Below, piece after piece: positions 8,399-43,357 of a stretch of DNA of 64,000 bases (within the stretch, counting starts at the first letter, position 1; each line of letters opens with the position of its first letter). The position numbers were made by a program, and so were the translations under genes. The DNA comes from Nitrospiraceae bacterium. GTDB lineage: Bacteria; Nitrospirota; Nitrospiria; Nitrospirales; Nitrospiraceae. Under the pieces are notes generated by a model. That model was given only the letters and a program-made list of their open reading frames with translations. It was not told the DNA's origin and searched no databases. The DNA lies in assembly GCA_035250505.1 (NCBI GenBank), contig DATFFC010000088.1, positions 953-64,952 on the forward strand, written 5' to 3'.

Positions 8399-8445
8399 CG
8401 TACTCAACGAATGGGGGGATTTCGGAATAGTCCGCTCTCCTCAGA

Positions 8446-10658: not shown

Positions 10659-10680
10659 AGGCCTCTTCGCTGTTTTGGAT

Positions 10681-11541
10681 TCAGACCGTGCGCAACAAAT
10701 GTTGCCAGAGAAACTGGACCGTGCCCTTGGGAAGATCGGGCACCGTCAGCCGGTCCACCGAGTCGGTCAACGAGACGAACGCCCGGCTCGACGGCGCCTG
10801 CGGGTATCGATCCAGCACGGCCCGCTGCTGAGTCACCGCCAGGGGAAGATAGTCATCCAGCGGGACGGCGCCGAGATAGTCGATGGAGATCTGCAGGAAG
10901 CGGCCGACCGCCACCTGAAGCTTGGAAAACACGCGGGCCGCTTCACTCGGACTTTTGACGAGATTCACCAGGACATGGAAGCGACGCTCACGATACTGGC
11001 GATGCAATACTTTCATCAGCGCATAGGCGTCGGTGAGCGACGTCGGCTCCGGAGATACCACCACGACGATCGATTGCGCGGCGGCGGCAAAGAACGTGAC
11101 GTTCGACGAAATTCCCGCGCCGGTATCGATCAACAGTACGTCGAACATGTGGGCGATCTGTTCGATCTCCGCCTGAAGGATCACATGTTGCGTCTGCGTC
11201 AACGAGGTCAGCTGCGGCATGCCGGAGCTGGCCGGAAGAATGCGGATGCCCGACGGTCCCTCCAGCATGATATCGGCCAGCGAGCGGGCGCCCGACAAGA
11301 CGTGTTCCAGCGTGTATTTTGGGGCCAGTCCAAGCAGGACATCGATATTCCCCAGCCCGAGGTCGGCGTCCAGCACGAGGACTCGTTTCCCGGCCCGCGA
11401 AAGCGCGATCGCCAAATTGGCGACCACATTTGTTTTCCCGACGCCGCCCTTTCCGCTGGTGACGGTCATTACCCGCGGCGGGCGCGTCCCGCCCCCCGTC
11501 TGAATCACACCTGGCTGCATCGCCAGCGTGAAATTACTCAT
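10681..11541 (-). CDS. flhG: MinD/ParA-type flagellar number regulator FlhG (YlxH/FleN)
   Basis: It has the deviant Walker A motif VTSGKGGVGKT and VLVLDADLGLGNID. I set the start at ATG 11541 (MSNFTLAM), which overlaps the flhF stop by 8 nt. The longer ORF-track call up to 12057 lies inside flhF. Confidence 0.88.
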   Translation of the reverse strand: MSNFTLAMQPGVIQTGGGTRPPRVMTVTSGKGGVGKTNVVANLAIALSRAGKRVLVLDADLGLGNIDVLLGLAPKYTLEHVLSGARSLADIMLEGPSGIRILPASSGMPQLTSLTQTQHVILQAEIEQIAHMFDVLLIDTGAGISSNVTFFAAAAQSIVVVVSPEPTSLTDAYALMKVLHRQYRERRFHVLVNLVKSPSEAARVFSKLQVAVGRFLQISIDYLGAVPLDDYLPLAVTQQRAVLDRYPQAPSSRAFVSLTDSVDRLTVPDLPKGTVQFLWQHLLRTV

Positions 11542-19044: not shown

Positions 19045-20013
19045 TCATCCCAGCACCTTGCTGATCCGGCAGGCGTGATTGCCCTTGAACACTCCGGGCA
19101 GGCCCATGAATTTCGGTCGGCCTTCGACAAAGCACCAGAGGAGGTCGCCGGGATGTTCGTCGAGCAGGAGCACGTCGCCCGGCGCAAAATTCAACACGTC
19201 TTGCACGCTGACCGTCGCCGTACCAAGGCGAACCGTGAGCGACACGGCGCAATCCTGAAGGGAATCGCGAAAACGGCTTCCCCAACTGCTGTCTTGTTCG
19301 ATGTGGTCCGCAAAGAGCCCGGAATACAATTTTTCCTTGATCGGTTCGAGCATGGCATAGGGATAGACGATGAAGAGATCGCGCGACGCTTCACCGATCT
19401 GGACTTGCAAGGTGACCACGACGACGATTTCGGTCATCGTCACGACCATGGCGAACTGAGGATTGCTTTCCGACCTGGTGTGGGTGATCTTGGCCGTCAG
19501 TACGGCATGCCAAGCCCGTTCGAGATCCGTCATGGCGTTCTGCACGAATTTTTTGATGAGGCGCAATTGGATGGGCGTAAATTCCCGCCCTTCCGGCTTG
19601 ACGTGCGTCTGCACTTTGCCGCCGAAAAAGTAATCGACGATCAGGTACACCAGCGACGCATCCATGACGAACAGCCCGTTCCCGCGCAGCGGCTCCATCA
19701 CGAAAACATTCAACGACGAGGGCAGCGGGATTTTTCTGATGAAGTCGCCGAACTTCATGATCTCCGTGCCGACCACGCTGAATTCGACCTTCTCCCGCAG
19801 GCTGCTCGTCCAGGCGATCGATTGCCGGCGGCAGAACCGGTCATTGATCATCTCCATCGTGGGCATGCGCCCGCGGATGATCCGTTCCTGATTGAGGAGG
19901 TCATACCCCTTGATGCCGCCCGGACTCTCGTCGTTCGGTGTCGTATCGACATCACCGGACACGACACCGCCCATCAAGGCGTCGATTTCTTCCTGCGATA
20001 GGATCTTATCCAT
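19045..20013 (-). CDS. fliM: flagellar motor switch protein FliM
   Basis: MDKILSQEEIDALMGG is the CheY-P-binding LSQxEIDALL motif. 322 aa with a C-terminal SpoA-like region. Confidence 0.93.
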   Translation of the reverse strand: MDKILSQEEIDALMGGVVSGDVDTTPNDESPGGIKGYDLLNQERIIRGRMPTMEMINDRFCRRQSIAWTSSLREKVEFSVVGTEIMKFGDFIRKIPLPSSLNVFVMEPLRGNGLFVMDASLVYLIVDYFFGGKVQTHVKPEGREFTPIQLRLIKKFVQNAMTDLERAWHAVLTAKITHTRSESNPQFAMVVTMTEIVVVVTLQVQIGEASRDLFIVYPYAMLEPIKEKLYSGLFADHIEQDSSWGSRFRDSLQDCAVSLTVRLGTATVSVQDVLNFAPGDVLLLDEHPGDLLWCFVEGRPKFMGLPGVFKGNHACRISKVLG

Positions 20014-24288: not shown

Positions 24289-24996
24289 CTATGGTGCAGC
24301 CAACAACTGCTCGGTCAGACGCGCCGCCCGCTCCGGACGAACGGCGGCGAGAATGGCGCCGGCGGACTTGCTTTTCAAGATGCGTAGCACTTCAATGGCC
24401 TTGCGTTCCGGCATGCGTTCCAGACTGGCCGCCGCTTCCTCGGCGGGCATCGACTCGTAGATTTTGGCCAACTGCGCCTGATGCTGATTTCTCGAGTCGG
24501 CCCCGGTCTTTTCCTGGCGGAGTTTGCGGTCCTGCTGCCGCTGTTGGCTTTCTGCTTCTTTCTGTTGCTGCGCGGCAGCCAGTCGTTCCTGCTTTGCGAG
24601 GATCTGTTCGAGTTCACCTTTTAACACCAACAGCCGGTCTTCTGCGCCGCGCAAGGAGGCCTCGCGCCGGTCGAGGTCGCGTTTCCGCTGATCAAGCATG
24701 TCGATAATCTCGCGGGGGACCGTCAGCGCCGGTCCCTGCACCGGAGTTCGTTCACTCGCACTTTGCTGAGGCTCGGCTGAAGCCGCCGATTGGGCGGATA
24801 TCCCGGTCGCCTGCCCGTTTGCGGCGGGAGGCTGCTCGGATTCAGCGGCTGCATGAGCCGGAAGGTCGACCAGCGAAACAAGACCGACGAGAAGCCAACC
24901 GGTGGCCGCCATCAGCGACCGCGAAACCGGCGACACCGCGCGGCGGCGTGCGAGCGGCCCGTCGTGACGGAAGATACTCAGGTTCCTGCTATTCAT
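24289..24996 (-). CDS. MgtE-N/MotE-like flagellar protein (YlxF/FlbB family)
   Basis: It has a signal or TM segment, then a coiled coil, then C-terminal LAKIYESMPAEEAAASLERMPERKAIEVLRILKSKSAGAILAAV (an MgtE_N-like repeat). It occupies the position held by ylxF in the Bacillus fliJ-ylxF-fliK order. Confidence 0.55.
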   Translation of the reverse strand: MNSRNLSIFRHDGPLARRRAVSPVSRSLMAATGWLLVGLVSLVDLPAHAAAESEQPPAANGQATGISAQSAASAEPQQSASERTPVQGPALTVPREIIDMLDQRKRDLDRREASLRGAEDRLLVLKGELEQILAKQERLAAAQQQKEAESQQRQQDRKLRQEKTGADSRNQHQAQLAKIYESMPAEEAAASLERMPERKAIEVLRILKSKSAGAILAAVRPERAARLTEQLLAAP

Positions 24997-25453
24997 GCGA
25001 ATGTCGTCCCGTGGGCACTTCCCATCTCGCCTCTCCACGCCGTCTGCGCGCCGCCTGCTCATCCATGAGCCGTTGATCTGCATGAAGCTCCTCCTGCTGT
25101 CGAGCCTCTCGGCGCCGGGCGATCAGAATATCGAGCTTCTTCCGTTCCTGCATGGCTCCGACGACCATCGACTGTTTATCCAGCCATTCACGGTGCAAGA
25201 CGGCATGGGCATCAGCCGATCGGCGAGCCTTGACCGACGCATGGTCGATGTCTTCATACCAATAAGAGGTCTCCTCGACCGTAAGACCGGCGAGAGCGGC
25301 TTCGGCGTATCGCCGTTGCTTCGCCTTGGCTTCGGCTTCATGGGAGGCTGCCTGTTCCGCGGATTCCTGCAGCACACGGGCGGCCGCCGCCAGCTCGATG
25401 CGCAGCGCGTCCTCGATCTGCCTACGATAGGCAAGCAGTCGCGAGAGATTCAT
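24989..25453 (-). CDS. fliJ: flagellar export chaperone/stalk protein FliJ
   Basis: 154-aa charged coiled-coil protein directly after fliI. The sequence LLAYRRQIEDALRIELAAA ... KKLDILIARRREARQQEE is FliJ-like. Confidence 0.75.
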   Translation of the reverse strand: MNLSRLLAYRRQIEDALRIELAAAARVLQESAEQAASHEAEAKAKQRRYAEAALAGLTVEETSYWYEDIDHASVKARRSADAHAVLHREWLDKQSMVVGAMQERKKLDILIARRREARQQEELHADQRLMDEQAARRRRGEARWEVPTGRHSHE

Positions 25454-26757
25454 TGGATCCTCTGTCCCAGCGCCGTCAGCTCATCGACCGCGCGCGCATA
25501 GGGGACCGGCTGTCTGATTTCCTGCCGCAGAAAAGCGGTAATGTCGTCATGTGCCGCCACCGCCTTGTCCAGTTCTTTGCTTGTCCCGGGTTTATAGGCC
25601 CCGAGCGTGATCAAATCCTCCGACCGCCGATACAGCGCCATCCGCTCAAACACGAGCCGCGCGGCGGCATAATGGGCCGGCGACACCACATCGCGCATCA
25701 CGCGGCTGGTGCTCTGCAGAATATCGACCGCGGGAAAGTGATTGCGGGCCGCCAGCTCGCGAGACAAGACGATGTGGCCGTCTAGAATGGACCGGACGGA
25801 ATCGGCGATGGGATCATTCAAGTCATCGCCATCCACCAAGACCGTGTAGAGGCCGGTAATCGTGCCGGGTCCCTGGCAGGTACCCACCCGCTCCAACAGC
25901 TTCGGCAGGGCCGAGAACACCGATGGGGTATAGCCTTTCGTCGTGGGCGGCTCTCCGATGGCCAGGCCGACCTCACGCTGACTATAGGCAAAGCGCGTCA
26001 AGGAATCCATCATGAGCAGGACATGTTTTCCGCAGTCGCGGAAATATTCGGCGATCGCCGTGGCGATCAGCGCGCCTCGGATGCGCACCAGCGGCGGCTG
26101 ATCCGACGTCGCGACGATGACCACGGAACGGGCCAGCGCTTGGGGGGTCAGATCCCGCTCCAGAAATTCTTTCACTTCGCGACCTCGCTCGCCGACCATG
26201 GCGATCACGTTGACATCGGCTTGCGTGTAGCGGCTGATCATCCCCAGCAAGATGCTCTTCCCGACGCCGGAGCCGGCAAAAAATCCGATCTTCTGACCCA
26301 GTCCACAGGTCAACAAGGCATTGACCGCTCTCACGCCGAGGTCCAACGGCTGTGTAATCCTGGCTCGGTGCAGCGGGTTCGGAGGTGCGGCATGAACGGG
26401 ATACCGGATGGTGTCCTCGAGCGGAGCCAATCCATCCAGCGGTTGGCCGAGTCCATCGAGAATGCGGCCCAACAGCTGGGGCCCGACCGGCACGGATGCC
26501 GCTCGCCCTCGCATGATGAGGCGACTGCCCGGTCCGATACCCTGCATGTCCCCAAGCGGCATCAGCAGCACGCGATCATCCCGAAACCCCACGACTTCGG
26601 CCAGCACGGTGCCGAGTCCGTCTTCACGCGTCACTTCACAGACTTCCCCGACCGACGTAAAGGGGCCGGTCCCTTCAATGACAATGCCGACCGCCTGGGC
26701 CACCCGCCCCGTGATGGCGATCGACTCAATGTCGTCCAGTCGCTCAGTGAGCTTCAT
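25450..26757 (-). CDS. fliI: flagellum-specific ATPase FliI
   Basis: Walker A (GSGVGKS) and Walker B (LLMMDSLTR) motifs are present within an F1/T3SS ATPase fold. I set the start at ATG 26757 (MKLTERL). Confidence 0.95.
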   Translation of the reverse strand: MKLTERLDDIESIAITGRVAQAVGIVIEGTGPFTSVGEVCEVTREDGLGTVLAEVVGFRDDRVLLMPLGDMQGIGPGSRLIMRGRAASVPVGPQLLGRILDGLGQPLDGLAPLEDTIRYPVHAAPPNPLHRARITQPLDLGVRAVNALLTCGLGQKIGFFAGSGVGKSILLGMISRYTQADVNVIAMVGERGREVKEFLERDLTPQALARSVVIVATSDQPPLVRIRGALIATAIAEYFRDCGKHVLLMMDSLTRFAYSQREVGLAIGEPPTTKGYTPSVFSALPKLLERVGTCQGPGTITGLYTVLVDGDDLNDPIADSVRSILDGHIVLSRELAARNHFPAVDILQSTSRVMRDVVSPAHYAAARLVFERMALYRRSEDLITLGAYKPGTSKELDKAVAAHDDITAFLRQEIRQPVPYARAVDELTALGQRIQ

Positions 26758-27802
26758 CGGTATTCCGCCGGCGTAACGCTTCACCGATGCGAAGCAATTG
26801 TGTTTCGAGCGTAGCATCGACCAGACGGCTCGGCGTGTGGATCAGACAGCCGCCGCGCGCGATCGACGCATCCCCCTCGATCTTGATCGTCAATGCCGGC
26901 TCGGCCCGCTCGCACAGCGCCTGGCGCGCCGGTTCCAACAACGGCACATCCAGCGGGTGCACGCAGATCCTGATTGCCCCGCGTTCGGGGACATGCGCGA
27001 ATGCGGCCTGCACTTGGGTTAGAATCAGGTCCGGCCGTTCCGCGACCGCATCGCGCAGGACTTTCTGCGCGATGCCGAATGCCAACGACGCCACGTCCTG
27101 CTCGATCGATTCATGCAATCGGCCCCCGATCGCGTCCAACCGATCGACCACCGTCTTCACCAGTTCTTGCTCTTGGCGGCGAGCCGCGGCCACCCGTTCG
27201 AACGCCAGGCGCTCTCCCTCGGCCAACCCGCGTTGATAGTCCGCCGCCGTCTCCTGGCCGCTCTTGGCTTCCTTCATTCCAAAGTCGGTGAGCGCCATCC
27301 GAGTCAGCCGGAGATTACCCGAGCGGATAATCGCATGCTTGAGCACACTATTCTCTTGCCGCAGCCGATGGAGTTCCATCAGCCTGGTGACCGTGTGCCG
27401 TACCAAGTCGTTTTGAAACGGCTTCGCGAGAAAATCGGACGCGCCTGCCTTCATAGCGCGAACGGCCACATCGATGTTACCGTAGCCGGTGATGACCAAG
27501 CCGAGCATCCCGCCGTCGATTTCCAGCATGCGCTGGAGCAAGGCGATGCCATCCATGTCCGGGAGCTGCACATCGATCATCAAGAGCGCGACAGGATGGC
27601 GCGAGAGGCAGGCCAGCGCCTCGTTGGCGGTTCCGGCCTGAAGAACGTGAAATCCGTCGGCATGAAGCAGGTCGGTCAGAAGGCACCGGACCGCTTCGTC
27701 ATCGTCTACGAGCAGGATGCTTTTCGCCGAGAGTTCCGGCGCCGGCCGCTGCGGCGCCGCCCGAACCGAAGCCGAGCCGGTCGCCGGCAATCCCATTTTC
27801 AT
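26744..27802 (-). CDS. fliH: receiver (REC) domain fused to flagellar export regulator FliH
   Basis: Residues ~28-145 form a CheY-like receiver containing every phosphorylation-pocket residue: LLVDDDE, LLMIDVQLPDMDG, LVITGYG, LAKPF. Residues ~185-345 are FliH-like (YQRGLAEGERLAFER ... IRICVHPLDVPLLEP ... IARGGCLIHTPSRLVDATLETQLLRI). ATGA overlap with the fliG stop, and the fliI ATG (26757) lies inside the 3' end of this ORF. Confidence 0.85.
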   Translation of the reverse strand: MKMGLPATGSASVRAAPQRPAPELSAKSILLVDDDEAVRCLLTDLLHADGFHVLQAGTANEALACLSRHPVALLMIDVQLPDMDGIALLQRMLEIDGGMLGLVITGYGNIDVAVRAMKAGASDFLAKPFQNDLVRHTVTRLMELHRLRQENSVLKHAIIRSGNLRLTRMALTDFGMKEAKSGQETAADYQRGLAEGERLAFERVAAARRQEQELVKTVVDRLDAIGGRLHESIEQDVASLAFGIAQKVLRDAVAERPDLILTQVQAAFAHVPERGAIRICVHPLDVPLLEPARQALCERAEPALTIKIEGDASIARGGCLIHTPSRLVDATLETQLLRIGEALRRRNTDEAH

Positions 27803-28794
27803 AGCATCTGCTCCCCTCCGGCACCGGCCACCACGATTCGTCCTTCCTCTTCCAGCTTGCGACAGACCTTCAGAATGTTCTGCTGCGCCTTTTCGACGTC
27901 CGACACCTTGACGGGCCCGCGGGTCTCCATATCGTCTTTGAGCATCTGGGCGGCGCGACTCGACATGTTCTTGAGAAATTTCTCCTTGACCTCCGGACTG
28001 CTGCCGCGCAGGGCGACCGGCAGATCCTCTTTGCTGATCTCTTTCATCAGTTCCTGAATGCCGCGGTCATCCAACTTGATCAAATCCTCGAACACGAACA
28101 TGAGGGCGCGGATGCTGTCGGCCAAGGCCTGATCCCGTTCTGACAGTTTGGCCATGATGCCCCCTTCGGTGGCTTTGTCCAGGCGGGTCAGAATGTTGGC
28201 CATGAGTTCGGCTCCCCCGACATTCATGCTGGAGCCGGCCGTCGTGGATTGCAGCGACTCCTGCAAACTATCGCTCAGCTCCTGCAAGACTTCAGGCTGG
28301 ACCTCCTGCATGGTCGCCAACCGCAACGCCACATCCGCGCGTAACATTTCCGGCAACGAACCGATCACCACGCTGGCCTGTTCCGCCTCGATATGCGCGA
28401 GACAGACGGCAATGGTTTGAGGATGTTCGACCCGCAGCAACTGCGCAACCATTTTGGCATCGATCCACTTCAGCGCATCGATGCCGGGATAGGTCTTCGT
28501 ATTTAAGGATTCGAGCAGGCGTGTGGCTTTGTCTTGCCCCAAGGCTTTGACCAGAATCGTCTTCATGTATTCTTTGCTCTCGAATTGCACCTCTCCGCTC
28601 GCACTGGCCTTCTCGAACTCATCGATGACGGCGGACTCTTCGTCCTTGGTGATGTGAGCCGTATCCTTCATGTAGGACCCCAACTTGCGGATATCCTTAG
28701 GGTCCAAGGATTTCATCACCTGCGCCGCGGCGTCTTCGCCGATCGCGCGGAGCAGGATGGCGGCCTTTTGTTCACCCGTCAGTTGTTTAGCCAT
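27799..28794 (-). CDS. fliG: flagellar motor switch protein FliG
   Basis: 331 aa. LTGEQKAAILLRAIGEDAAAQVMKSLDPKDIRKL ... MFVFEDLIKLDDRGIQELMKEI ... LRGSSPEVKEKFLKNMSSRAAQMLKDDME. Confidence 0.95.
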   Translation of the reverse strand: MAKQLTGEQKAAILLRAIGEDAAAQVMKSLDPKDIRKLGSYMKDTAHITKDEESAVIDEFEKASASGEVQFESKEYMKTILVKALGQDKATRLLESLNTKTYPGIDALKWIDAKMVAQLLRVEHPQTIAVCLAHIEAEQASVVIGSLPEMLRADVALRLATMQEVQPEVLQELSDSLQESLQSTTAGSSMNVGGAELMANILTRLDKATEGGIMAKLSERDQALADSIRALMFVFEDLIKLDDRGIQELMKEISKEDLPVALRGSSPEVKEKFLKNMSSRAAQMLKDDMETRGPVKVSDVEKAQQNILKVCRKLEEEGRIVVAGAGGEQML

Positions 28795-32240: not shown

Positions 32241-33668
32241 TCATGCTTGCTCGGCTCCGACCTGATATCCCATGTCTCGATACTCGCGCAGTTTATTCCG
32301 CAGCGTGCGAATGCTGATGCCGAGCTCTTTGGCTGCGTGGGTCCGGTTGTCTTTGACCCGCGCCAACGTCTTGAAAATCAACTCACGCTCCATCTCCCAC
32401 AGCGATCCATAGGGAGACGCGGCGGGCGACTGGGCGGCCGGCATGACGGATTCCGTTTCTTTCGCGGGGGGCGCGCCTTCGGATAGGATCTGAGGCAGAT
32501 CGATCGTCGCACCGTTGGCCAAGAGCGTCGCCCGCTCGATCACATTTTCCAGTTCGCGGACGTTGCCTTTCCACGGCCTGGCAAGAAGTTCCGTGACGGC
32601 GCCGTCCGACAGAGCGGGGACCGGCAAGCTGTTCCGGTGTGCGGCCGCCTTCACGAAGTGGCGGGCCAGGAGCGGGATGTCGCCGGTCCGTTCGCGAAGC
32701 GGCGGTACCGTAATGGGAAACACGTTCAGGCGATAGAAGAGATCCTCACGAAATCGTCCTTGGGCCACCTCGTGATAGAGAGAGCGGTTGGTGGTCGCAA
32801 TGACCCGAATGTTGACCGGCACCGGTTCCCGCCCGCCGATCCGATCCACCTCCCGTTCCTGGAGCACCCGCAAGAGTTTGGCCTGGAGGCCGAGGTTCAT
32901 CTCACTGATCTCATCGAGAAACAACGTTCCGGTGTGTGCCATCTCAAACTTGCCGAGCTTCTTCTGGACCGCTCCGGTGAAGGCGCCCCGCTCGTGCCCG
33001 AACAGCTCGCTTTCCAAGAGGCTGTCCGGCAACGCAGCGCAATTCAAGGCGACGAACGGCCGGTGGGCGCGCGGGCTCCGGCCATGGATAAAGCGCGCCA
33101 GCAACTCCTTTCCGGTCCCGCTTTCGCCGCTGATCAGTATGGTCGCTTGGCTGGCGGCAACCCCTTCCAACGTGGTGAGCAATCGGATCATGCCGGGATC
33201 TTGCGTGAGAATGGGTCTGGCCTCGGGCGTCGCACGCAGATCTTCATCATCCTCCCCCGCCCTTGCTTGGCGAAGATTGCCGATGATGCGTTCCAGCAGG
33301 TCCGTGGAGAACGGCTTCAAAATATAGTCGTTGGCACCGTATTTCATTGCTTCGACCGCCGTCTCGACCGTCCCATAGGCGGTCATGAGGATGACCAGCG
33401 TAGCCGGCGATTTCTGCTTGATCTCTTTGACAAGATCGAGTCCCCCTAGGCGCGGCATTTTCAGATCGGTGAGCACCAACCACGGTTTCAACCGCTCGAT
33501 CTGCTCGAGCGCATCGACGCCGTCGAGCGCCGTCTTCACGTCATGTCCCATCCGTCGTACCGTTTCCGACAATGCGGCGCGCATGGACGGCTCGTCATCC
33601 ACCACCAGCACGAGGCGGGTATCTTCTTGCGCGTGAAGGTCGCCGTGAACCGGTTGCTGGACGCTCAT
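32241..33668 (-). CDS. sigma-54-dependent response regulator (FlrC/FleR-like)
   Basis: It combines a REC domain (LVVDDEPS, LVLTDLKMPRLGG, KPF), an AAA+ domain with the GAFTGA loop (GHERGAFTGA) and Walker A (GESGTGKE), and a C-terminal Fis-type HTH. It overlaps the upstream kinase gene. Confidence 0.88.
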   Translation of the reverse strand: MSVQQPVHGDLHAQEDTRLVLVVDDEPSMRAALSETVRRMGHDVKTALDGVDALEQIERLKPWLVLTDLKMPRLGGLDLVKEIKQKSPATLVILMTAYGTVETAVEAMKYGANDYILKPFSTDLLERIIGNLRQARAGEDDEDLRATPEARPILTQDPGMIRLLTTLEGVAASQATILISGESGTGKELLARFIHGRSPRAHRPFVALNCAALPDSLLESELFGHERGAFTGAVQKKLGKFEMAHTGTLFLDEISEMNLGLQAKLLRVLQEREVDRIGGREPVPVNIRVIATTNRSLYHEVAQGRFREDLFYRLNVFPITVPPLRERTGDIPLLARHFVKAAAHRNSLPVPALSDGAVTELLARPWKGNVRELENVIERATLLANGATIDLPQILSEGAPPAKETESVMPAAQSPAASPYGSLWEMERELIFKTLARVKDNRTHAAKELGISIRTLRNKLREYRDMGYQVGAEQA

Positions 33669-34936
33669 AGTGATTTCTCCTCTTCAGCAAGCATCGTCTG
33701 CTCAGTCTCGTCCCTCGAATCGGTCTCGTCGGAGCCATCCGCTTTGCCCGGCAAGGTGATGATGAATGCCGTGCCTTCTCCCGGGACACTATCCACATCG
33801 ATACGGCCGCGATGAGCCTCTACCAGCGCATGGACGATCGCGAGCCCCAATCCGGTCCCGCCGTCCTTGGTCGTAAAGAACGGGTCGAAAATGCGTGATT
33901 GTTGTTCCGGCGGGATGCCCGGCCCTGTATCCCGCACGGTCACGCGCGTCCCAGCGTGGCCCGGTCCACTGCACCGGCGATCTGCTTGAACCACCACCGA
34001 TAAGGTCCCTCCGTGCGGCATCGCCTGAACGGCGTTCATGATCAGGTTCAAAAGCACTTGCTTCATCTGTGCCGCATCGCACCAGACACGTGCGGCAAAA
34101 CGGTCCGCCTCAAACCGTACCTGGACGGTCGAAGCCGACAGGGCATGGGCGGCCATCGTCAACGCTTCCTGGACTAATGCCTCGGTTTCGTGCCAGGCCG
34201 CCTGAGACCGGTTCGGTTTCATGTAGAGCAATAAATTGGAAAGCAGTCGATCCATCGATTGCACCGCCATGGAGATGTGTTCAGCATAGGCGCGCAGGTG
34301 CGGCGTCTCCTGCAGGTCCTTCCGCAACATCGAGGCGAACAGCTCGACGCTCCCGAGCGGATTACGAATCTCATGGGCGATGCACCCGAGCATTTCGCCC
34401 ATCGCAGCCAGCCGGTTCCGTCGTTGCAGCCGTTCTTCGAGGTGGCGGACCTTCGTCACATCATGAAACAGATGAAGCCGGCCGATGGACTCGCCGGCCG
34501 GGTCGTTCAGTTCGGCTTGTGTCATCGAGAGGGCCATCCCGTCATGCAGCAGCAACGGATACTCCCGCCGGTCCAGGTGGGCTTCCTCGAGAATCTCCCG
34601 GCTCGAACGTCCTTGGAGGCAGTCGCGCGGGACGCCAAGCATCTTTTCCGCGGCGGCGTTACAACGGGTCACGGTTCCCTCACGATCCGTCACAAGAACG
34701 CCCGTATCGAGCGATTCTAGAATGGCGGTGAGATGGGCCCGCATGTCTTCGGTTTCCTTGAGATGCTTGCGCAAGGTGGCGTTTGTCTCAGCCAGCTCCA
34801 GATCCATCTCATGCAAACGCGTCGTCAGAGCCACATAGGACTGTTGCAGTACGCTCGCCGCCTGATCGAAATCCTGAAAGGCCCGGGCCAAGAGGGCGCC
34901 GTTGGCCTGCTCCGGTACCGGAGGCGATGGCGTCAT
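33665..34936 (-). CDS. PAS sensor histidine kinase (FlrB/FleS-like), soluble
   Basis: It has a PAS region, an H-box (IAHEIRNPLGSVELF), and N/G boxes (LLNLIMNAVQAM, DTGPGI, GTGLGLAIV). ATG 34936 forms an ATGA overlap with the TPR gene stop. No TM segments were seen. Confidence 0.85.
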   Translation of the reverse strand: MTPSPPVPEQANGALLARAFQDFDQAASVLQQSYVALTTRLHEMDLELAETNATLRKHLKETEDMRAHLTAILESLDTGVLVTDREGTVTRCNAAAEKMLGVPRDCLQGRSSREILEEAHLDRREYPLLLHDGMALSMTQAELNDPAGESIGRLHLFHDVTKVRHLEERLQRRNRLAAMGEMLGCIAHEIRNPLGSVELFASMLRKDLQETPHLRAYAEHISMAVQSMDRLLSNLLLYMKPNRSQAAWHETEALVQEALTMAAHALSASTVQVRFEADRFAARVWCDAAQMKQVLLNLIMNAVQAMPHGGTLSVVVQADRRCSGPGHAGTRVTVRDTGPGIPPEQQSRIFDPFFTTKDGGTGLGLAIVHALVEAHRGRIDVDSVPGEGTAFIITLPGKADGSDETDSRDETEQTMLAEEEKSL

Positions 34937-37089
34937 GGGCTGCTCCTTTCGATCGTGGAAGCCTGTAGATCCCGTGCGAACACGGCCGCAGCCCGCCGGT
35001 AGAGGGACTGGTCCTCGGCCATGAGCGCTTCCAGCGCCAGGCGCGCCTGATCCGGCTTTCGGGCCTCGCGGTAGAGCCGCACGATCTGCATCCGATCCCA
35101 AGCGGCCACCGCTCGACTCGGATTCAGGCTGAGGCTTTTTCGGTACAACGCCACCGCCTGCTCACTCCGCTTGGCCTTGCTGACAAGATCACCGTATGTC
35201 GCCAAGGCATCCGGCGTGCCGAGCCCACCGAGCCGATTCGCCTCCTCCAACACCGGAAGCGCCTCGGCCGGCCGATGCAGATCGACCAGCGCCAGCCCGA
35301 TGTGTGCCAGCACGTCTTTTCGCACATTCGCCCGGGGATGATTTTGCAGCCACCTGTGTCCGAGCCGGACGACATGGGCGTGCTTGCCTTGTTGGGCCAT
35401 GGAAGTCAGGAGCAGTACGAGGGCTTCGTCGGCATATTGCCCGAGTGGAAATTGGAGGCGATACCGTTCGAAAACTCGTTGAGCAGCCTGTGGGTCCTGT
35501 TGATCCAGGTAACTGGTGCCCAGGCCGATCAAGGCCGATTCCAGCAAGTCGCCGGACTGGGGATCCCGAATGACGAATTGGTAGAGTCGCGCCGCTTCAA
35601 CGGAAAATCCGAGGCGCGCATGCGCATCGGCAACTAGAGATAGGAGGCGATGCCCCGCATACAAGTGATCGGCGCGCGGGCCGTGACGATGGAAGACTGT
35701 CACCGCGCCGAGGTCGTTCTTGGCTTGCAAGGCGGCTTCCAACGACGGCTGAAGCAGGACCCTCAGCCGAGCTCCTGTCGCGTCCGGCCAGGGATCGCCT
35801 TCGAGGCGACCGGCTCGGGCCACAACCCGTCCGTAGAGCTTCAATGCCTCTTCCACATGTCCGGCCTGTTCCTGGAACTCCCCAAGGCGAAACAAGGCTT
35901 CACTTCCCACCGGTGAGTCGGGATGCCGGGCGGCGATATCTTCCAACCGTTGCATCGGTGTATCGGGGTTTACGGCTGTGAGAGGAAGCCCCAGCAGCAG
36001 AGATTCAACCTGAGCCTGCGGCAGCATGGGCATGCCCGCTTGGTAACCCCGCTCCCCTGTGACCCGGATCAACCGAATTTGAGCGAGCGTGCCGGCTTCG
36101 GCGTTCGGATATCGGGCCGCCACGGCGGCGTAGAACAGACGGGCTTCATCGGCCTGGCTCGCCTGTCGGTAATTGTCGGCCAATGCGAGCAACACTTCCG
36201 GCGCTTCGACGCTGGATGGAAAGAGATTGTAGAACTGGAGCCATAACCCACGCGCGGTTTGCGTGCGCTTGAGAGCGAGGGAGGTGTTGGCATAGCGGAT
36301 CAATCCGTGGGGTTGACGGCGAAACACCGGTCCCCATCGCTGGGCGGCCGTCGCATACCGTTGATCCGCCTCCCCCATCAGCCCTTGGCGATAAAGCGCA
36401 TGTCCGGCTCCGATCGAGGCATGGGCGAGTAAGTGCGGATCGGTGGTCTGCTTGCGCGCCAACTCGAAGACTTTGTGCGCATCCGCCCACTTTTTCATTC
36501 CCAGGAGTGTGAACCCCAGTCCGACCATCGCACGGTTCCGATCGTACGAATCGGCATCGGCTCGACCGAGCGCCTGCTGATAGGCGGTTTCCGATTCTTG
36601 GTACCAGCCCAGCTCGCGATACAGATCACCCATGCGCCAGGCGGCGCGCTTGCCGTTGCCCGACGAGGCGCTCTCGCGGCCCAGTACCCGATAGGTCTCA
36701 ATCACGTCGATTCGCCTGGGCTGTTCAGCGGGTGCCATGAGAAGCGATTCGGCAAGAAACGCTCGCGCCGCCGGGGCGGCCTCATGCTGGGGATGCTCCC
36801 TAAGAAATTGCTCGAATCGCGTCGAGGCCGCCGGGATGTCGCGTCGTTCATAGGCCGCGACTGCTTCATCGAATAGTCGTCTGTTCGGATCGCCGGCAGA
36901 TCGATCGAAACGAGGTCCCGCATCCGGCAGGCTCGTCTGAATTATGGATGGCGGCTCGGGAACGCCCGTCGGTGCGACAGTTTGCCATTTGGGGGGAACA
37001 TCGGCCGAAACGGGCGGCGGGCTCCGCTCCGGCTCAGCAGCGGCTCCTTGTCCTGCTGTCGCCCACCCGGCGAGCAACGGGACGAGCAT
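34933..37089 (-). CDS. large TPR-repeat protein, probably secreted, co-operonic with the flagellar two-component system
   Basis: About 718 aa with many Ala/Leu/Tyr-rich 34-residue TPR-like repeats and an N-terminal hydrophobic segment (MLVPLLAGWATAGQGAAA). The ORF stays open up to 37215, but a sigma-54 promoter at 37144-37159 argues for the start at 37089. The start remains uncertain. Confidence 0.6.
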   Translation of the reverse strand: MLVPLLAGWATAGQGAAAEPERSPPPVSADVPPKWQTVAPTGVPEPPSIIQTSLPDAGPRFDRSAGDPNRRLFDEAVAAYERRDIPAASTRFEQFLREHPQHEAAPAARAFLAESLLMAPAEQPRRIDVIETYRVLGRESASSGNGKRAAWRMGDLYRELGWYQESETAYQQALGRADADSYDRNRAMVGLGFTLLGMKKWADAHKVFELARKQTTDPHLLAHASIGAGHALYRQGLMGEADQRYATAAQRWGPVFRRQPHGLIRYANTSLALKRTQTARGLWLQFYNLFPSSVEAPEVLLALADNYRQASQADEARLFYAAVAARYPNAEAGTLAQIRLIRVTGERGYQAGMPMLPQAQVESLLLGLPLTAVNPDTPMQRLEDIAARHPDSPVGSEALFRLGEFQEQAGHVEEALKLYGRVVARAGRLEGDPWPDATGARLRVLLQPSLEAALQAKNDLGAVTVFHRHGPRADHLYAGHRLLSLVADAHARLGFSVEAARLYQFVIRDPQSGDLLESALIGLGTSYLDQQDPQAAQRVFERYRLQFPLGQYADEALVLLLTSMAQQGKHAHVVRLGHRWLQNHPRANVRKDVLAHIGLALVDLHRPAEALPVLEEANRLGGLGTPDALATYGDLVSKAKRSEQAVALYRKSLSLNPSRAVAAWDRMQIVRLYREARKPDQARLALEALMAEDQSLYRRAAAVFARDLQASTIERSSP

Positions 37090-37143
37090 CAGCGGAAAAA
37101 TTGTATGGGCAAGAGGAAAAATTTGCACGGCACGTAAGAGCTG

Positions 37144-37159
37144 AGCAAGTCCCGTGCCT
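37144..37159 (-). promoter_or_regulatory. sigma-54 promoter upstream of the TPR/kinase/regulator operon
   Basis: The minus strand reads AGGCAC-GGGAC-TTGCT (GG-N10-GC). It lies 55 nt upstream of ATG 37089. Confidence 0.55.
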
Positions 37160-37286
37160 TCTGCCCAGGGCTGAAGTACGCAAAAAATGCGCGAGGGGGG
37201 GATATACACCCTCACTCTTGTCAGGAATCACGACAAGCGGTGAGGAAATGAGTCAAGGAATTGACTGACTGGAATGCTTACCGGGC

Positions 37287-38702
37287 TCAGTTTGGAATAG
37301 TTTCGCCGTGGCTCTTGGCGTCAAACCCTTTACGCTTCAGCTTTTCGACCAGCGTGGTTCGGTTCAACTGGAGGAGCTGCGCAGCCCTGCTGGTTACCCC
37401 GTTGGCCTTGCGCAACGCTTCTCCGATTAAACGATTCTCGTACTGCTCCAGCTCCTTCGTGAGATTGATTCCCTCCTCGTTGAAGCGAATGAAATGCTCG
37501 GGTTGCTCCGCCTGTTGAGCGGGAAGCGCCTTTGCCACACGCTCCGGTAGATCGGCGACGGTGATCCAACCCTTCCTCTTCAAGACGACAGACCGTTCCA
37601 CCAAGTTTTCCAGTTCCCGGATGTTGCCCGGCCACTCATACTCCATGAGCCGGGCCAATGCCTCATTTTCCATTCCCTCGATCTCGGTCTTCCGCTGCTC
37701 GTTCAACCGCTCAATGAAGTGGTTCACCAGCAGCGGAATATCGCTGCGGCGCTCGCGCAACGCCGGCACCTCGATGGGAATGACGTGCAGGCGATAATAG
37801 AGGTCCTGCCGGAATCGGCGCTCGGCGACCGCCTGTTCCAAATTTTGATTCGTGGCGGCGATGATGCGGACATCGACATGAATCGTCTTGTTTCCCCCGA
37901 CTCGCTCGAAGCACCGTTCCTGCAGCACGCGAAGCAGTTTCACCTGAAGCGCAAGCGGCATCTCGCCGATTTCATCGAGAAAGAGCGTCCCGCCATGGGC
38001 CAGTTCGAAGCGTCCGAGGCGGGTGTGCGCCGCTCCCGTGAACGCCCCTTTTTCGTGGCCGAACAGCTCGGATTCAAGTAGATTTTCGGGAATGGCCCCG
38101 CAGTTCACCGGTACGAGCGGCCGGTCGCGCCTCATGCTGTTGAAATGCAGCATCCGCGCAATAAGCTCCTTGCCGGTTCCGCTGTCTCCCTGGATCAAGA
38201 CTGTGCTCTCGCTGTCGGCGACCTTTTCGACAAAATCCAAGACCCGCCGCATCGGCGTGCTCGTGCCGACCAAGTGCTCGAACCGATATTGCTCGCGAAC
38301 CGCTTTTCGCAACAAATGGTTTTCCTGCTTGAGCTTCAGCACTTCTACCGCGCGTTTGACGATCAGCGAGACGGTATCCGGGCCGAAGGGCTTCGTGATG
38401 AAGTCGAACGCGCCCGCCTTCATCGTCCGTACGGCGTAGTCGATGGTGCCGAAGCCGGTCATGACGATCGTGATGATCCTGGAATCCATCTTCGAGATGC
38501 GGGTGATGACCTCCAGTCCGTCCATGCCGGGCATGTGCAAGTCGGTGATCACGATATGGACCGGTTGGTCCTGTATCGCCTGGAGCGCAGCCGGACCGTC
38601 CGCGACGCCCGTTACCTGATAGCCGTCATTGAGCAATGTTGCGCTGAGAACCTCTCGGACGCCCGTGTCATCATCAACGACGAGGATGTGGTACTGATTC
38701 AT
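37287..38702 (-). CDS. sigma-54-dependent response regulator (FleQ/FlrA-like candidate master regulator)
   Basis: It combines a REC domain with an intact acceptor (ILVVDDDTG, IVITDLHMPGMDG, TKPF), an AAA+ domain with GHEKGAFTGA and GDSGTGKE, and a C-terminal HTH. It is the first gene of the flagellar block. Confidence 0.85.
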   Translation of the reverse strand: MNQYHILVVDDDTGVREVLSATLLNDGYQVTGVADGPAALQAIQDQPVHIVITDLHMPGMDGLEVITRISKMDSRIITIVMTGFGTIDYAVRTMKAGAFDFITKPFGPDTVSLIVKRAVEVLKLKQENHLLRKAVREQYRFEHLVGTSTPMRRVLDFVEKVADSESTVLIQGDSGTGKELIARMLHFNSMRRDRPLVPVNCGAIPENLLESELFGHEKGAFTGAAHTRLGRFELAHGGTLFLDEIGEMPLALQVKLLRVLQERCFERVGGNKTIHVDVRIIAATNQNLEQAVAERRFRQDLYYRLHVIPIEVPALRERRSDIPLLVNHFIERLNEQRKTEIEGMENEALARLMEYEWPGNIRELENLVERSVVLKRKGWITVADLPERVAKALPAQQAEQPEHFIRFNEEGINLTKELEQYENRLIGEALRKANGVTSRAAQLLQLNRTTLVEKLKRKGFDAKSHGETIPN

Positions 38703-39196: not shown

Positions 39197-39272
39197 GCTG
39201 GCGTAGCTCAATCGGCAGAGCAGCGGTTTTGTAAACCGCCGGTTGGAGGTTCGATTCCTCTCGCCAGCTCCA
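39197..39272 (+). tRNA. tRNA-Thr (anticodon UGU)
   Basis: A cloverleaf can be drawn by hand. The acceptor stem pairs GCTGGCG with CGCCAGC. The D-arm is TAGCTCAATCGGCAGAGC. The anticodon stem pairs GCGGT with ACCGC around the loop TTTGTAA. The T-arm is GGAGGTTCGATTCCTC. The CCA end is encoded. Confidence 0.85.
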
Positions 39273-39402: not shown

Positions 39403-40025
39403 TTATTCATAAAGTAAGAGGCCACCAATATCTGAAGACTCTTCCTCACCCCAATTAGATCCCAGGCACCCAAGCGAACAGAAGTAGCGATGTTCTTCAC
39501 AATCACGAGGCATCGTATCGAAAGTTTTCGTGATGTATTTGGACAGATAACGTCCCAGCTTAATCGGCGAGCTCCCTGGACGCGGACCTCTGACGTTCAC
39601 CTGCCCTTGTCCGTTCCCGTTGACGATCTTCCATTGTCTCAATACGTAAGCGTCACCAAGTGATCCGCACCGATGGCCAAACACTTCCTTCGAATTTCCC
39701 CTTTTGCCCGGCCTCGGGCGCGAATCTCATCTCGCTCTCTGTTACGTGATCTTCCTTTCTCACCTTTCTTGCCCGGTTGGGCCTCGACCTTGCCCCACGA
39801 CATTTCGACCCACTGTTTGCCGAAAGCATGGATCTTGGTCGACCAGACGTTGCCTTTCGGTCGTACTGTGGTGTGTTGTCCAGTGTGATCGCCGAGAAAT
39901 GTCCTCCTGTCAAGTTTAGGGGCCGCTGGCACGGCCCGTGCGCGGGTGGCTCTCGCCAGCTTGCGCATCGTTGGCCTGGCCCCTTGCCTGCTATCGTGAC
40001 TCAATTCATTGCCTTGACACGACAC
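39403..40025 (-). pseudogene. rolling-circle replication initiator (HUH Rep) remnant, frameshifted or deleted
   Basis: ORF 39639-40025 ends in ...IRRKCLAIGADHLVTLTY, which is RCR motif I (xTLTY). The next frame (39403-39684) carries ...LGRYLSKYITK, which is RCR motif III (YxxKY). No HUH motif lies between them, and the frames differ. Confidence 0.5.
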
Positions 40026-40076
40026 GCGGAACCCCCTAGCCTTAGACTAACTAACCGGTTAGTAAGGAGTTGGCCA

Positions 40077-40298
40077 ATGGACGATCGCATCGTTGTCGAC
40101 CCAAAAATCTGTAGCGGGAAACCCACGATTCGAGGGACCCGCATCATGGTCACGAACATCCTCGGCATGGTGGCTGGGGGCTACACCGTCCCCCAGATCC
40201 TCAATGCCTATCCTGAATTGACTCAGGAAGACATAACTGCCGCTCTCGAATACGCCAGCCACGTGGTTGACGAAGAGAAAGTTATTCCGCGTGCCTGA
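40077..40298 (+). CDS. DUF433-type antitoxin-like protein
   Basis: 73 aa. IVVDPKICSGKPTIRGTRIMVTNILGMVAGGYTVPQILNAYPELTQEDITAALEYA is the DUF433 pattern. An AAGGAG RBS lies 7 nt upstream of ATG 40077. Confidence 0.8.
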   Translation: MDDRIVVDPKICSGKPTIRGTRIMVTNILGMVAGGYTVPQILNAYPELTQEDITAALEYASHVVDEEKVIPRA

Positions 40299-40557
40299 TC
40301 GCCTCACCGTTCTGTTAGACCAAAACATTCTCAAACCCGTTCTTTCGTGGCTCATCCAACTAAAGCCTCCCTGGACCGTGTATCACACCAGCGACGTAGA
40401 CCTTTCCGGAAAGGCAGATGAAGAAGTCTTCGCGTGGGCCCAACGAAACGGCGCCCTCATTATTTCTTTCGATGAGGACTTCGCTGATGGACGTTCCTTT
40501 CCGGCGAGAGATCATCACGGCATCGTTCGCCTTCGAGTATGGCCAACTACCATGTAG
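40291..40557 (+). CDS. DUF5615/PIN-like (Mut7-C-type) toxin-like protein
   Basis: The sequence LLDQNILKPVLSWL ... GKADEEVFAWAQRNGALIISFDEDFAD follows the DUF5615 pattern. A GTG start at 40291 would overlap the upstream stop by 8 nt, and the start is uncertain. Confidence 0.65.
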   Translation: MPDRLTVLLDQNILKPVLSWLIQLKPPWTVYHTSDVDLSGKADEEVFAWAQRNGALIISFDEDFADGRSFPARDHHGIVRLRVWPTTM

Positions 40558-40855: not shown

Positions 40856-40901
40856 TTTGTAAACCGCCGGTTGGAGGTTCGATTCCTCTCGCCAGCTCCA
40901 C
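40856..40901 (+). repeat. direct repeat 2 (attR-like; orphan 3' fragment of tRNA-Thr)
   Basis: It is an exact 46-nt copy of 39228-39273 and lacks the 5' half of the tRNA. Confidence 0.85.
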
Positions 40902-41039
40902 TCGATACGTAGAGAGATCAAGCGGTTGTGCCGTTGGCTCTGCGTACGCTCTTCGGAAGGGTGCTCGACAGCGGTCTTGTTCCCATCTGAGGAGATTGCT
41001 ACGGATAACGACGATAAGTGATGGACTGGCTGCGAGGAT

Positions 41040-41621
41040 TCAGAATCTATAGCCGATCTCCAGCAGATACATGTCCACACCGAGCGCGTCAGACCCATAG
41101 AAGCCCGCATCGGACAAATGCTGCAGGCGGAGGCCCGCATAGCCATGCGTAAACGGAGCGAACGTGATTCCCACTGTCCCGACGATTTGCGCGGGACCCC
41201 CGAAGTCTTGCAACCCGAACTTAGTTCTTGAAAGCAGTCCTACGCCCAACCCTGCATCGAGGGATATGAGCCCGTTCCAACCGCTGAGAGCGAGGTCGGG
41301 AACAAAGGTGGCTATGAGGCCGGTGCTTCCCGCTCCCTCGATGACGCCTAAACTCGTAATGAGTCGGGTCTCCAGCTTCCAGTTGCCGTTACCCAATGAC
41401 GAGTACCAGGGAAGCCTGAAAACCGCCGCCACGTCATACAAATGAAAATCTTCTTTTTGCTGCTTGCCCAAAAGCGGGGTGCTGGTGGTGCTGAAACCTA
41501 TTCGTGGACCAATGGTAATGAGGAGGGACTTTTCCTCTGCCTGGCTTAGGTTGTGAGTTTGTGTAATAAATGCAACCGACACAGCTAGACAGATTGCCGT
41601 GAAACGACGCTCGAATCTCAT
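41040..41621 (-). CDS. PagL-like outer-membrane beta-barrel (putative lipid A deacylase / acyloxyacyl hydrolase family)
   Basis: It has a signal peptide, alternating beta-strand pattern, and a C-terminal LRLQHLSDAGFYGSDALGVDMYLLEIGYRF. That segment contains the H-x-S catalytic-type motif and a terminal aromatic residue. Confidence 0.55.
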   Translation of the reverse strand: MRFERRFTAICLAVSVAFITQTHNLSQAEEKSLLITIGPRIGFSTTSTPLLGKQQKEDFHLYDVAAVFRLPWYSSLGNGNWKLETRLITSLGVIEGAGSTGLIATFVPDLALSGWNGLISLDAGLGVGLLSRTKFGLQDFGGPAQIVGTVGITFAPFTHGYAGLRLQHLSDAGFYGSDALGVDMYLLEIGYRF

Positions 41622-43354: not shown

Positions 43355-43357
43355 TCG

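Follow-up and report, generated by a model that had tools for sequence, protein, structure and literature searches.

What might a phosphorylatable receiver domain be doing on FliH, the partner protein of the flagellar export ATPase? FliH is regarded as tethering the flagellar and injectisome ATPases constitutively and as regulating them negatively; it acts as a dimer that links FliI to the C-ring and to FlhA, and no signaling input to it is known in canonical systems. The question is raised by a 64,000-nucleotide stretch of DNA from a Nitrospiraceae bacterium (assembly GCA_035250505.1, contig DATFFC010000088.1, positions 953 to 64,952; hereafter the window), in which the gene in the fliH position encodes an N-terminal receiver (REC) domain and a C-terminal FliH region. 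We find that this protein, here called REC-FliH, is a true two-domain protein, and that its architecture is shared across the Nitrospiraceae. The gene and its immediate neighbors are as follows.

26744-27802, minus strand: REC-fliH, an intact open reading frame (ORF) of 352 amino acids plus stop, matched by Pfam Response_reg and FliH and by NCBIfam FliH.
27799-28794, minus strand: fliG, which shares an ATGA overlap with REC-fliH.
25450-26757, minus strand: fliI, the export ATPase, whose start lies within the 3' end of REC-fliH and is conserved in relatives.

The gene is translationally coupled on both sides. The ATGA overlap joins the end of fliG (27799) to the REC-fliH start, with the junction sequence CTATGAAA, and the fliI ATG at 26757 falls 14 nucleotides inside the REC-fliH 3' end. 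Related loci keep a fliI start aligned with 26757 as ATG or GTG, mostly 11 to 14 nucleotides before the fliH stop and in a few cases 17 to 23 nucleotides before it, and the FliI proteins of these loci begin with a short conserved segment, M/V-K-L-S/T-E-R-L-E. A longer fliI, from the in-frame upstream ATG at 26817 given by the ORF-listing program, was ruled out, as many relatives carry a stop in the fliI frame just upstream of the conserved start.

Profile searches place both domains on the single polypeptide, each above its cut-off: Pfam Response_reg matches residues 29-137 (E 4.7e-24, 85.1 bits; cut-off 30.2), and Pfam FliH matches residues 217-338 (E 1.2e-19, 70.9 bits; cut-off 24.1). The NCBIfam FliH model PRK05687 aligns to residues 185-343 (E 6e-23), its 81.6 bits lying below the equivalog cut-off of 180. 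An AlphaFold2 (AF2) model resolves the chain, from N to C terminus, into a receiver (residues 28-130), a helix (131-160), a low-confidence stretch (164-181), a second helix (184-255), and a globular domain (259-351). Within the family, mean pairwise identity is highest for the receiver (0.60), followed by the linker helix (0.58), the FliH C-domain (0.54), and the coiled coil (0.51). The sequence-only reading that first drew attention to this gene had described an intact 352-residue gene coupled to both neighbors, a receiver with a complete phosphorylation pocket, and a recognizable FliH domain in the C-terminal half, to be verified by profile search; each of these descriptions holds, the FliH match being clearly significant. 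Ahead of the receiver stands a tail in which the family alignment contains no conserved aromatic or hydrophobic motif.

27722-27802, minus strand: variable N-terminal tail, residues 1-27, mean pairwise identity 0.21, with an AF2 predicted local distance difference test score (pLDDT) below 50 at residues 1-24.
27413-27721, minus strand: receiver, residues 28-130, a (βα)5 fold by Pfam and AF2 (pLDDT about 90), with Foldseek matches to NtrX and NtrC1.
27572-27574, minus strand: GAT codon of the predicted phospho-acceptor Asp77.

All five residues of the phosphorylation pocket are present in the receiver, namely the acidic pair in LLVDDDE (D33/D34), the acceptor in LLMIDVQLPDMDG (D77), the threonine in VITGYG (T105), and the lysine in LAKPF (K127). 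Among 114 near-full-length family members, the sample for all residue counts given here, D77 and K127 are invariant (114/114 each), T105 is found in 113 and D34 in 111, and position 33 is Asp in 107 and Glu in the other seven; the aromatic switch residue F124 is kept in 109. The pocket thus appears to be phosphorylatable and is strongly conserved. A Foldseek search with the AF2 receiver returns the receivers of NtrX, NtrC1, DctD, and NtrC4 as the best matches, with NtrX (PDB 4D6Y) at a template modeling (TM) score of 0.93 and a root mean square deviation of 1.0 Å. Departures from the canonical pocket are few. Single substitutions are D34G in P0043 and P0114 and T105I in P0107. In one protein, P0134, every pocket residue is replaced (V, E, G, V, V, V) with the domain, the linker, and the gene order kept, and it is the sole fully degenerate case among roughly 140 FliH-containing proteins examined. 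The possibility that P0134 represents a lineage outside the Nitrospiraceae was discarded, its source being a Nitrospiraceae metagenome-assembled genome (MAG).

L083 (JAXLZC010000001.1), 10001-11107: gene for P0134, with the same upstream gene order and a che cluster after fliJ.

The remainder of REC-FliH carries the features of FliH itself, preceded by a helix of the kind that links receivers to AAA+ domains in NtrC-family activators.

27323-27412, minus strand: α5/linker helix, residues 131-160, of the type that joins REC to AAA+ in the NtrC family, helical in the AF2 model and aligned without gaps to EBP1 (see below) through residue 158, with NCBIfam NtrX and AtoC matches reaching residues 161-165.
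27275-27322, minus strand: disordered short linear motif, residues 161-176, a candidate FliM/FliN-binding peptide (APAR), with pLDDT below 50 over 164-181.
27038-27241, minus strand: FliH coiled-coil region (residues 188-255), in which a GxxxG is invariant, a single helix over 184-255 in the AF2 model (pLDDT about 90).
26747-27037, minus strand: FliH C-terminal globular domain, residues 256-352, by Pfam FliH and a profile match to PDB 5B0O; this is the FliI-binding domain in Salmonella.
19045-20013, minus strand: fliM (C-ring), a presumed docking partner of the FliH motif, assigned as an ORF and by FliM plus FliMN_C on the related contig L001.
18645-19019, minus strand: fliN (C-ring), likewise a presumed docking partner, assigned by its translation and by a 124-residue FliMN_C protein on L001.

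Assignment of the C-terminal half relies on the family profile, which matches the Salmonella FliH chain of the FliH-FliI crystal structure (5B0O_E) with an E-value of 3.4e-9 and shares with it the HP.D and GGC...DA motifs; a single-sequence phmmer search of the FliH half against the PDB returned no FliH, only chance matches. The same profile weakly matches the F-ATPase delta/OSCP subunits, as expected for FliH. In the coiled coil, G192 and G196 are each present in 114/114 sequences. Glycine repeats are described as a hallmark of FliH (PMC2674601); compared with the repeat AxxxG(xxxG)mxxxA, REC-FliH has G192-xxx-G196-xxx-A200, with one repeat only and D/E rather than A in the leading position.

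The disordered segment between linker helix and coiled coil harbors a conserved motif, hydrophobic164-R165-hydrophobic166-x-x-hydrophobic169-x-L171-x-D173-F174, in which position 164 is V, I, L, or M in all 114 sequences, with R165 in 101, L171 in 105, D173 in 106, and F174 in 107. In Salmonella, W7, W10, and L15 of FliH residues 1-18 (MSNELPWQVWTPDDLAPP; PDB 4YXC) mediate binding to the FliM-FliN SPOA pair, and the same N-terminal region contacts FlhA (PMC4443714); Notti et al. 2015 describe FliH as having a disordered adaptor peptide at the N terminus, after which comes a long coiled coil. The spacing of REC-FliH residues 164, 166, 169, 173, and 174 is that of Salmonella L5, W7, W10, D14, and L15, and here too a conserved disordered motif precedes the predicted coiled coil, but it is internal and lacks the two tryptophans. 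On the strength of this correspondence, we infer that residues 164-174 are a candidate FliM/FliN docking peptide, internal in REC-FliH. Were this so, the receiver and linker would have been added in front of a whole FliH, replacing no part of it.

To what extent is this architecture shared? A protein search over 5.8 billion sequences gave 853 matches, and architecture was read on the 120 matches listed: both PF00072 and PF02108 are present in 120/120, at identities from 100% down to 40%, and the named sources are Nitrospira, Nitrospiraceae, or Nitrospirota. A scan of GTDB with one genome per species and one very specific peptide pattern, which recovers near relatives only, returned 137 relatives among the species representatives. 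The best 80 of these 137 loci are almost all labeled Nitrospira or Nitrospiraceae, the exceptions being two "uncultured bacterium," two "Nitrospirota," and one "Nitrosospira" NOB bin, and they include Ca. Nitrospira defluvii, represented by its finished chromosome (FP929003.1), and a closed MAG (CP092081.1). Together with ENA contig L001, which encodes the near-identical protein P0001 among the same neighboring genes, this makes 81 loci, and receiver and FliH are on one ORF in 81/81, separated in nearly all by 46 residues between the two profile matches (range 43-53). Among 1.84 billion cluster representatives, about 12 full-length REC-FliH clusters were recovered by profile; in that search multi-receiver proteins scoring above 198 bits swamp the list, and fusions from other phyla, expected at 130 to 180 bits, would be hidden. 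As far as detectable by these searches, REC-FliH appears to be restricted to the Nitrospiraceae. The sequence-only reading called for a phylogenetic survey, and the family-wide distribution is a point that it did not know.

Gene order is conserved with the architecture. The series EBP1, tetratricopeptide repeat (TPR) gene, PAS kinase, EBP2, flgB, flgC, fliE, fliF, fliG, REC-fliH, fliI, fliJ is kept in relatives of 50% and about 35% identity, the distant relatives L082 and L083 showing the same order. The bulk of the flagellar regulon lies in the window, between EBP1 (38702) and flgK (17), and a FliH profile finds no second FliH-like ORF there. Nearly all GTDB matches carry one REC-fliH locus per genome. 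One genome, MAG_266, has two (L007, VOPT01000072.1, and L017, VOPT01000042.1), either from two flagellar loci or from a mixed bin. The representative library also holds a FliH-only protein of 185 residues, P0170, which begins exactly at the conserved motif (MVRLQMSPFQTFG) and is more likely a truncated gene call than a split gene devoid of the receiver.

Where did the receiver come from, and which kinase might serve it? The candidates within the window are the following.

37287-38702, minus strand: EBP1, a REC-sigma54 AAA+-helix-turn-helix (HTH) protein by Pfam, the first gene of the cluster, occupying the FleQ/FlrA position.
34933-37215, minus strand: TPR protein of 760 residues with a hydrophobic segment at the N terminus, its gene ATGA-coupled to that of the PAS kinase.
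33665-34936, minus strand: PAS-HisKA-HATPase_c histidine kinase by Pfam, in the FleS/FlrB/FlgS position, a candidate phosphodonor.
32241-33668, minus strand: EBP2, a REC-sigma54 AAA+-HTH protein like FleR/FlrC/FlbD, ATGA-coupled to the PAS kinase and its presumed cognate regulator.
46959-48371: a third sigma-54 activator, with 32% identity to the FliH receiver (82.9 bits).

Among NCBIfam models, the REC-FliH receiver matches NtrX, FixJ, AtoC, and NtrC-type proteins, the similarity continuing through the linker helix to about residue 165; the NtrX, AtoC, and NtrC models cover residues 26-165 only and score far below their cut-offs. Pfam detects no AAA+ sigma-54 domain (PF00158) in REC-FliH, and there is no HTH. 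Judged by these profiles, REC-FliH is not a sigma-54 activator, and only its receiver and linker are related to that family. Of the activators encoded near it, EBP1 has the closest receiver, with 40% identity over 135 residues without a gap and 131.6 bits against a FliH-receiver profile, compared with 31% and 94.8 bits for EBP2. We also compared 260 non-FliH receiver proteins, among them the top receiver matches from the 1.84-billion library and the nearest EBP1 relatives; the EBP1-relative search returned proteins of at most 245 residues, so that REC-FliH itself could not appear, and its output serves as a comparison set. By BLAST, EBP1 orthologues rank first of the 260, just behind fragments of REC-FliH itself, and in a neighbor-joining tree the FliH receivers form a monophyletic clade whose sister group consists of the EBP1 receivers and one fragment, with weak bootstrap support. 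The picture is suggestive only: the FliH receiver may derive from an EBP1-type receiver.

Residues at positions that touch kinases in other systems follow the same pattern. At four positions of helix α1, which we take to be equivalent to those rewired in the HK853-RR468 interface (PDB 4JA2), FliH receivers have A/G, I/V, L, and L, EBP1 has A, V, V, and L, and EBP2 has S, M, A, and L. The EBP1 receiver pocket is intact (DD, D, T, K), and no kinase gene adjoins it. The PAS kinase is the only kinase in the cluster and is conserved at the loci of two distant relatives; it has no transmembrane-like segment, its maximum Kyte-Doolittle value over 19 residues being 1.17, and its gene is joined by ATGA overlaps to the TPR gene upstream and to EBP2 downstream, which is why EBP2 is presumed to be its partner. 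Two candidate donors come into consideration for REC-FliH, the kinase that serves the EBP1 receiver and the soluble PAS kinase of the locus, the latter belonging to the class of cytoplasmic kinases (FlgS/FlrB/FleS) known to monitor whether the MS-ring, rotor, and export core have been assembled. As judged from receiver similarity, it is more likely that the FliH receiver shares whatever kinase serves EBP1. The sequence-only reading had put forward the PAS kinase as the phosphodonor: its identification as a soluble kinase stands, while its role as donor is weakened by the coupling to EBP2 and by the closer kinship of the FliH receiver with EBP1 in both overall identity and helix α1, leaving it a possible but not favored candidate. 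In L082 and L083 the TPR protein is likewise kept between EBP1 and the kinase, and it may be part of the signaling module.

How, then, might the receiver act? In regulators of the NtrC1/DctD type, phosphorylation rearranges the receiver/linker dimer and so changes what the next domain can do, its state being relayed through the linker coiled coil. By analogy, a histidine kinase would phosphorylate D77 of REC-FliH and alter the geometry of its receiver/linker dimer, which in turn would expose or occlude the candidate FliM/FliN- and FlhA-binding peptides or shift the FliH coiled coil. Because FliH is dimeric and the candidate peptide directly follows the linker helix, such a change would be expected to reach that peptide, and FliH2-FliI would be tuned in its docking at the C-ring or export gate or in its activity there, amounting to post-translational two-component control of flagellar assembly. 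That phosphorylation of D77 tunes FliH2-FliI docking through the receiver and linker is the explanation we prefer, and we hold it as plausible though tentative.

Several observations weigh against it. P0134 has lost every pocket residue and kept the domain, which favors a role that is at least partly structural. The match of the internal motif to the Salmonella peptide is one of spacing of hydrophobic and acidic residues only, and neither Salmonella tryptophan is conserved, L/C/V and L/M/V/F standing in their place. The sisterhood of FliH and EBP1 receivers is weakly supported, with strict monophyly of the groups in 16-26 of 67 bootstrap replicates. Finally, information could flow in the reverse direction, with FliH reporting to the kinase.

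This reversed flow can be given a concrete form, in which REC-FliH acts as a sensor of an assembly checkpoint or as a phosphate sink. Free REC-FliH would compete with EBP1, EBP2, or both for phosphoryl groups from the flagellar kinase, or would tether the kinase; once docked on the completed MS-ring/C-ring/export core, FliH would sequester its receiver or present it differently, and the kinase would then phosphorylate the transcription factor and turn on the rod and hook genes. FlgS, FlrB, and FleS are cytoplasmic kinases whose activity requires assembly of the MS-ring, rotor, and type III secretion core of the flagellum, and how they sense the assembled core is only partly known (PMC7064773; PMC3760246). 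This dependence on a built core holds for the soluble flagellar kinases of Campylobacter, Vibrio, and Pseudomonas. One soluble kinase and three intact receivers are encoded at the present locus, and the FliH receiver is a close paralogue of a regulator's receiver, as competitors for one kinase would be. Yet in Vibrio the checkpoint needs FliG and not FliM or FliN, and since that study makes no mention of FliH or FliI (PMC7064773), FliH is not a known part of the signal; moreover, a mere sink would need no fusion to FliH in fixed geometry with a conserved linker. We regard this scheme as rather unlikely, although the present data do not separate gating of export from reversed flow. A broader proposition embraces both directions, namely that the export ATPase complex is itself an output or a sensor of a two-component system, with receiver phosphorylation switching docking or docking controlling access of the kinase to its transcription-factor substrates; this we put forward as a possibility, short of an expectation.

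Alternatively, the receiver and linker may form a phosphorylation-independent module, an additional dimerization or spacer domain that provides, for example, a longer or stiffer spoke between C-ring and ATPase, with the pocket simply inherited. The dead-pocket P0134, with domain, linker, and gene order in place, implies that the receiver has some value apart from phosphorylation, and the D34G and T105I proteins point the same way, aspartate-less receivers being a known class (PMC4395418). Nevertheless, five pocket positions show 94-100% retention among 114 sequences in which receiver identity falls to 32%, and F124 is kept in nearly all of them; such retention is not expected in the absence of selection on phospho-chemistry, and full degeneration is seen only once in the entire protein set. 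The conservation of the pocket makes a purely structural role the less likely reading, and we consider it improbable.

A chemotaxis-type input has little in its favor. Here the receiver would be a tethered CheY that is phosphorylated by CheA and binds FliM/FliN directly, coupling chemotaxis to export or to motor composition. Foldseek does list CheY structures at similar scores, including 4IGA (CheY with the FliM N-terminus), FliH sits at the C-ring where CheY-P acts, and a che cluster adjoins fliJ in one relative (L083). That relative, however, is the one encoding the dead-pocket P0134, and the best sequence and profile matches of the receiver are to NtrX, FixJ, AtoC, and NtrC-type proteins, extending through an NtrC-type linker helix, with the receivers of sigma-54 activators as nearest relatives; because the affinities of the receiver lie with NtrC-type receivers, a CheY-like role is highly unlikely. 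Hardly credible is an artefact, whether a frameshift or chimeric assembly joining a response regulator to fliH (a check the sequence-only reading had called for) or a genuine fliH elsewhere, as the same single ORF and constant spacing recur in 81/81 independent assemblies, a finished chromosome included, and in 120/120 matches listed, the gene occupies the canonical fliG-fliH-fliI-fliJ position with translational coupling, and the window has no other FliH-like ORF.

We return to phosphorylation-tuned docking as our preferred reading and consider what a receiver on FliH would mean. Known control of flagellar assembly is transcriptional or is exerted on the motor (CheY, c-di-GMP brakes), and a phosphorylatable receiver fixed on FliH throughout a bacterial family points toward a level of regulation that acts at the export apparatus, in a group that includes globally important nitrite oxidizers and complete ammonia oxidizers. 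If the broader proposition holds, in either direction, a single phosphorelay would form a physical link between basal-body assembly, protein export, and sigma-54 transcription, the first instance of a type III secretion ATPase regulator under direct two-component control. It would also provide a molecular entry point to the way in which cytoplasmic flagellar kinases sense the state of assembly, and may bear on this open question of polar flagellates. The hypothesis is testable in vitro, by phosphotransfer and by binding to FliM/FliN, FlhA, and FliI, though Nitrospira genetics is hard. No paper on a fusion of receiver and FliH turned up in literature searches, in agreement with the earlier impression that no experimental description exists; a review-type preprint on the homology of FliH and ATP synthase lists Nitrospirae only for the conserved fliHIJ order. 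Proteins of this kind entered public databases with the genome of Ca. N. defluvii and are inconsistently named there ("response regulator," "FliH," "FixJ family... /FliH," "ATP synthase subunit delta"). The architecture has thus been visible yet uninterpreted, its parts familiar and their combination uncharacterized and fixed in one family.

Other features of the window lie in or beside the flagellar cluster. The gene after fliJ (24289-25083, minus strand) encodes a 264-residue protein that matches MgtE_N weakly and has a coiled region rich in Glu, Gln, and Arg, and its position is conserved in relatives. A GGDEF (diguanylate cyclase) gene (7595-8407, minus strand) is found inside the cluster between fliA and flgF. 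Just upstream of the cluster is a tRNA-Thr(tgt), the 3' half of which (46 nucleotides, exact) is repeated 1.6 kb away (39197-39272 and 40856-40928); the repeat brackets an islet encoding a DUF433 protein (39777-40298, plus strand) and a DUF5615/PIN-like protein (40267-40557, plus strand), which looks like the remnant of a tRNA-integrated element with a toxin-antitoxin-like pair. Just outside the cluster, genes for tryptophan 2,3-dioxygenase and kynureninase (42164-44224, minus strand) lie beside one for a PagL-like lipid A deacylase (41040-41621).

Placed in the context of known systems, REC-FliH most resembles canonical FliH of Salmonella and E. coli (PF02108, FliH/SctL), with which it shares the coupled position between fliG and fliI, C-domain homology to 5B0O, a long coiled coil with GxxxG, and a disordered hydrophobic and acidic peptide of the same spacing before that coiled coil. 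It differs by about 160 extra N-terminal residues that comprise the tail, the intact receiver, and a 30-residue linker helix; in addition, the docking peptide of canonical FliH is at the extreme N terminus and that of REC-FliH would be internal, with aliphatic residues or Phe in place of the two clamp tryptophans. With the NtrC-family activators (NtrC1, DctD, NtrC4, NtrX, and the flagellar FleR/FlrC/FlgR/FlbD) it shares the type of receiver and α5/linker helix but neither AAA+ domain nor HTH, its output being a structural/export protein rather than a transcription factor. In regulators with a protein output, such as CheY on FliM/FliN and the ClpXP adaptors RssB and CpdR, the receiver likewise controls a protein-protein interaction, as it would here, and CheY acts on the same C-ring proteins on which FliH docks. 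Those regulators are, however, stand-alone or fused to nonflagellar domains, and none is known to be fused to a component of a type III export ATPase complex; REC-FliH is not a stand-alone receiver of about 120 residues like CheY but a 352-residue protein with a FliH output region, and its matches to the RssB and CpdR profiles reflect the generic receiver and fall far below their cut-offs.

The locus as a whole is organized like those of the FlgSR, FlrBC, and FleSR systems, the flagellar two-component checkpoints of polar flagellates, with a master activator, a soluble cytoplasmic kinase, and a sigma-54 regulator followed by fliE-fliJ, and with flhF/flhG and fliA downstream. The N-domain of FleQ and FlrA is degenerate, whereas EBP1 in the corresponding position has an apparently phosphorylatable receiver. 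The FlgSR, FlrBC, and FleSR systems have no known output other than transcription, exerted by way of the sigma-54 regulator; to this arrangement the Nitrospiraceae locus adds a third receiver, on FliH.

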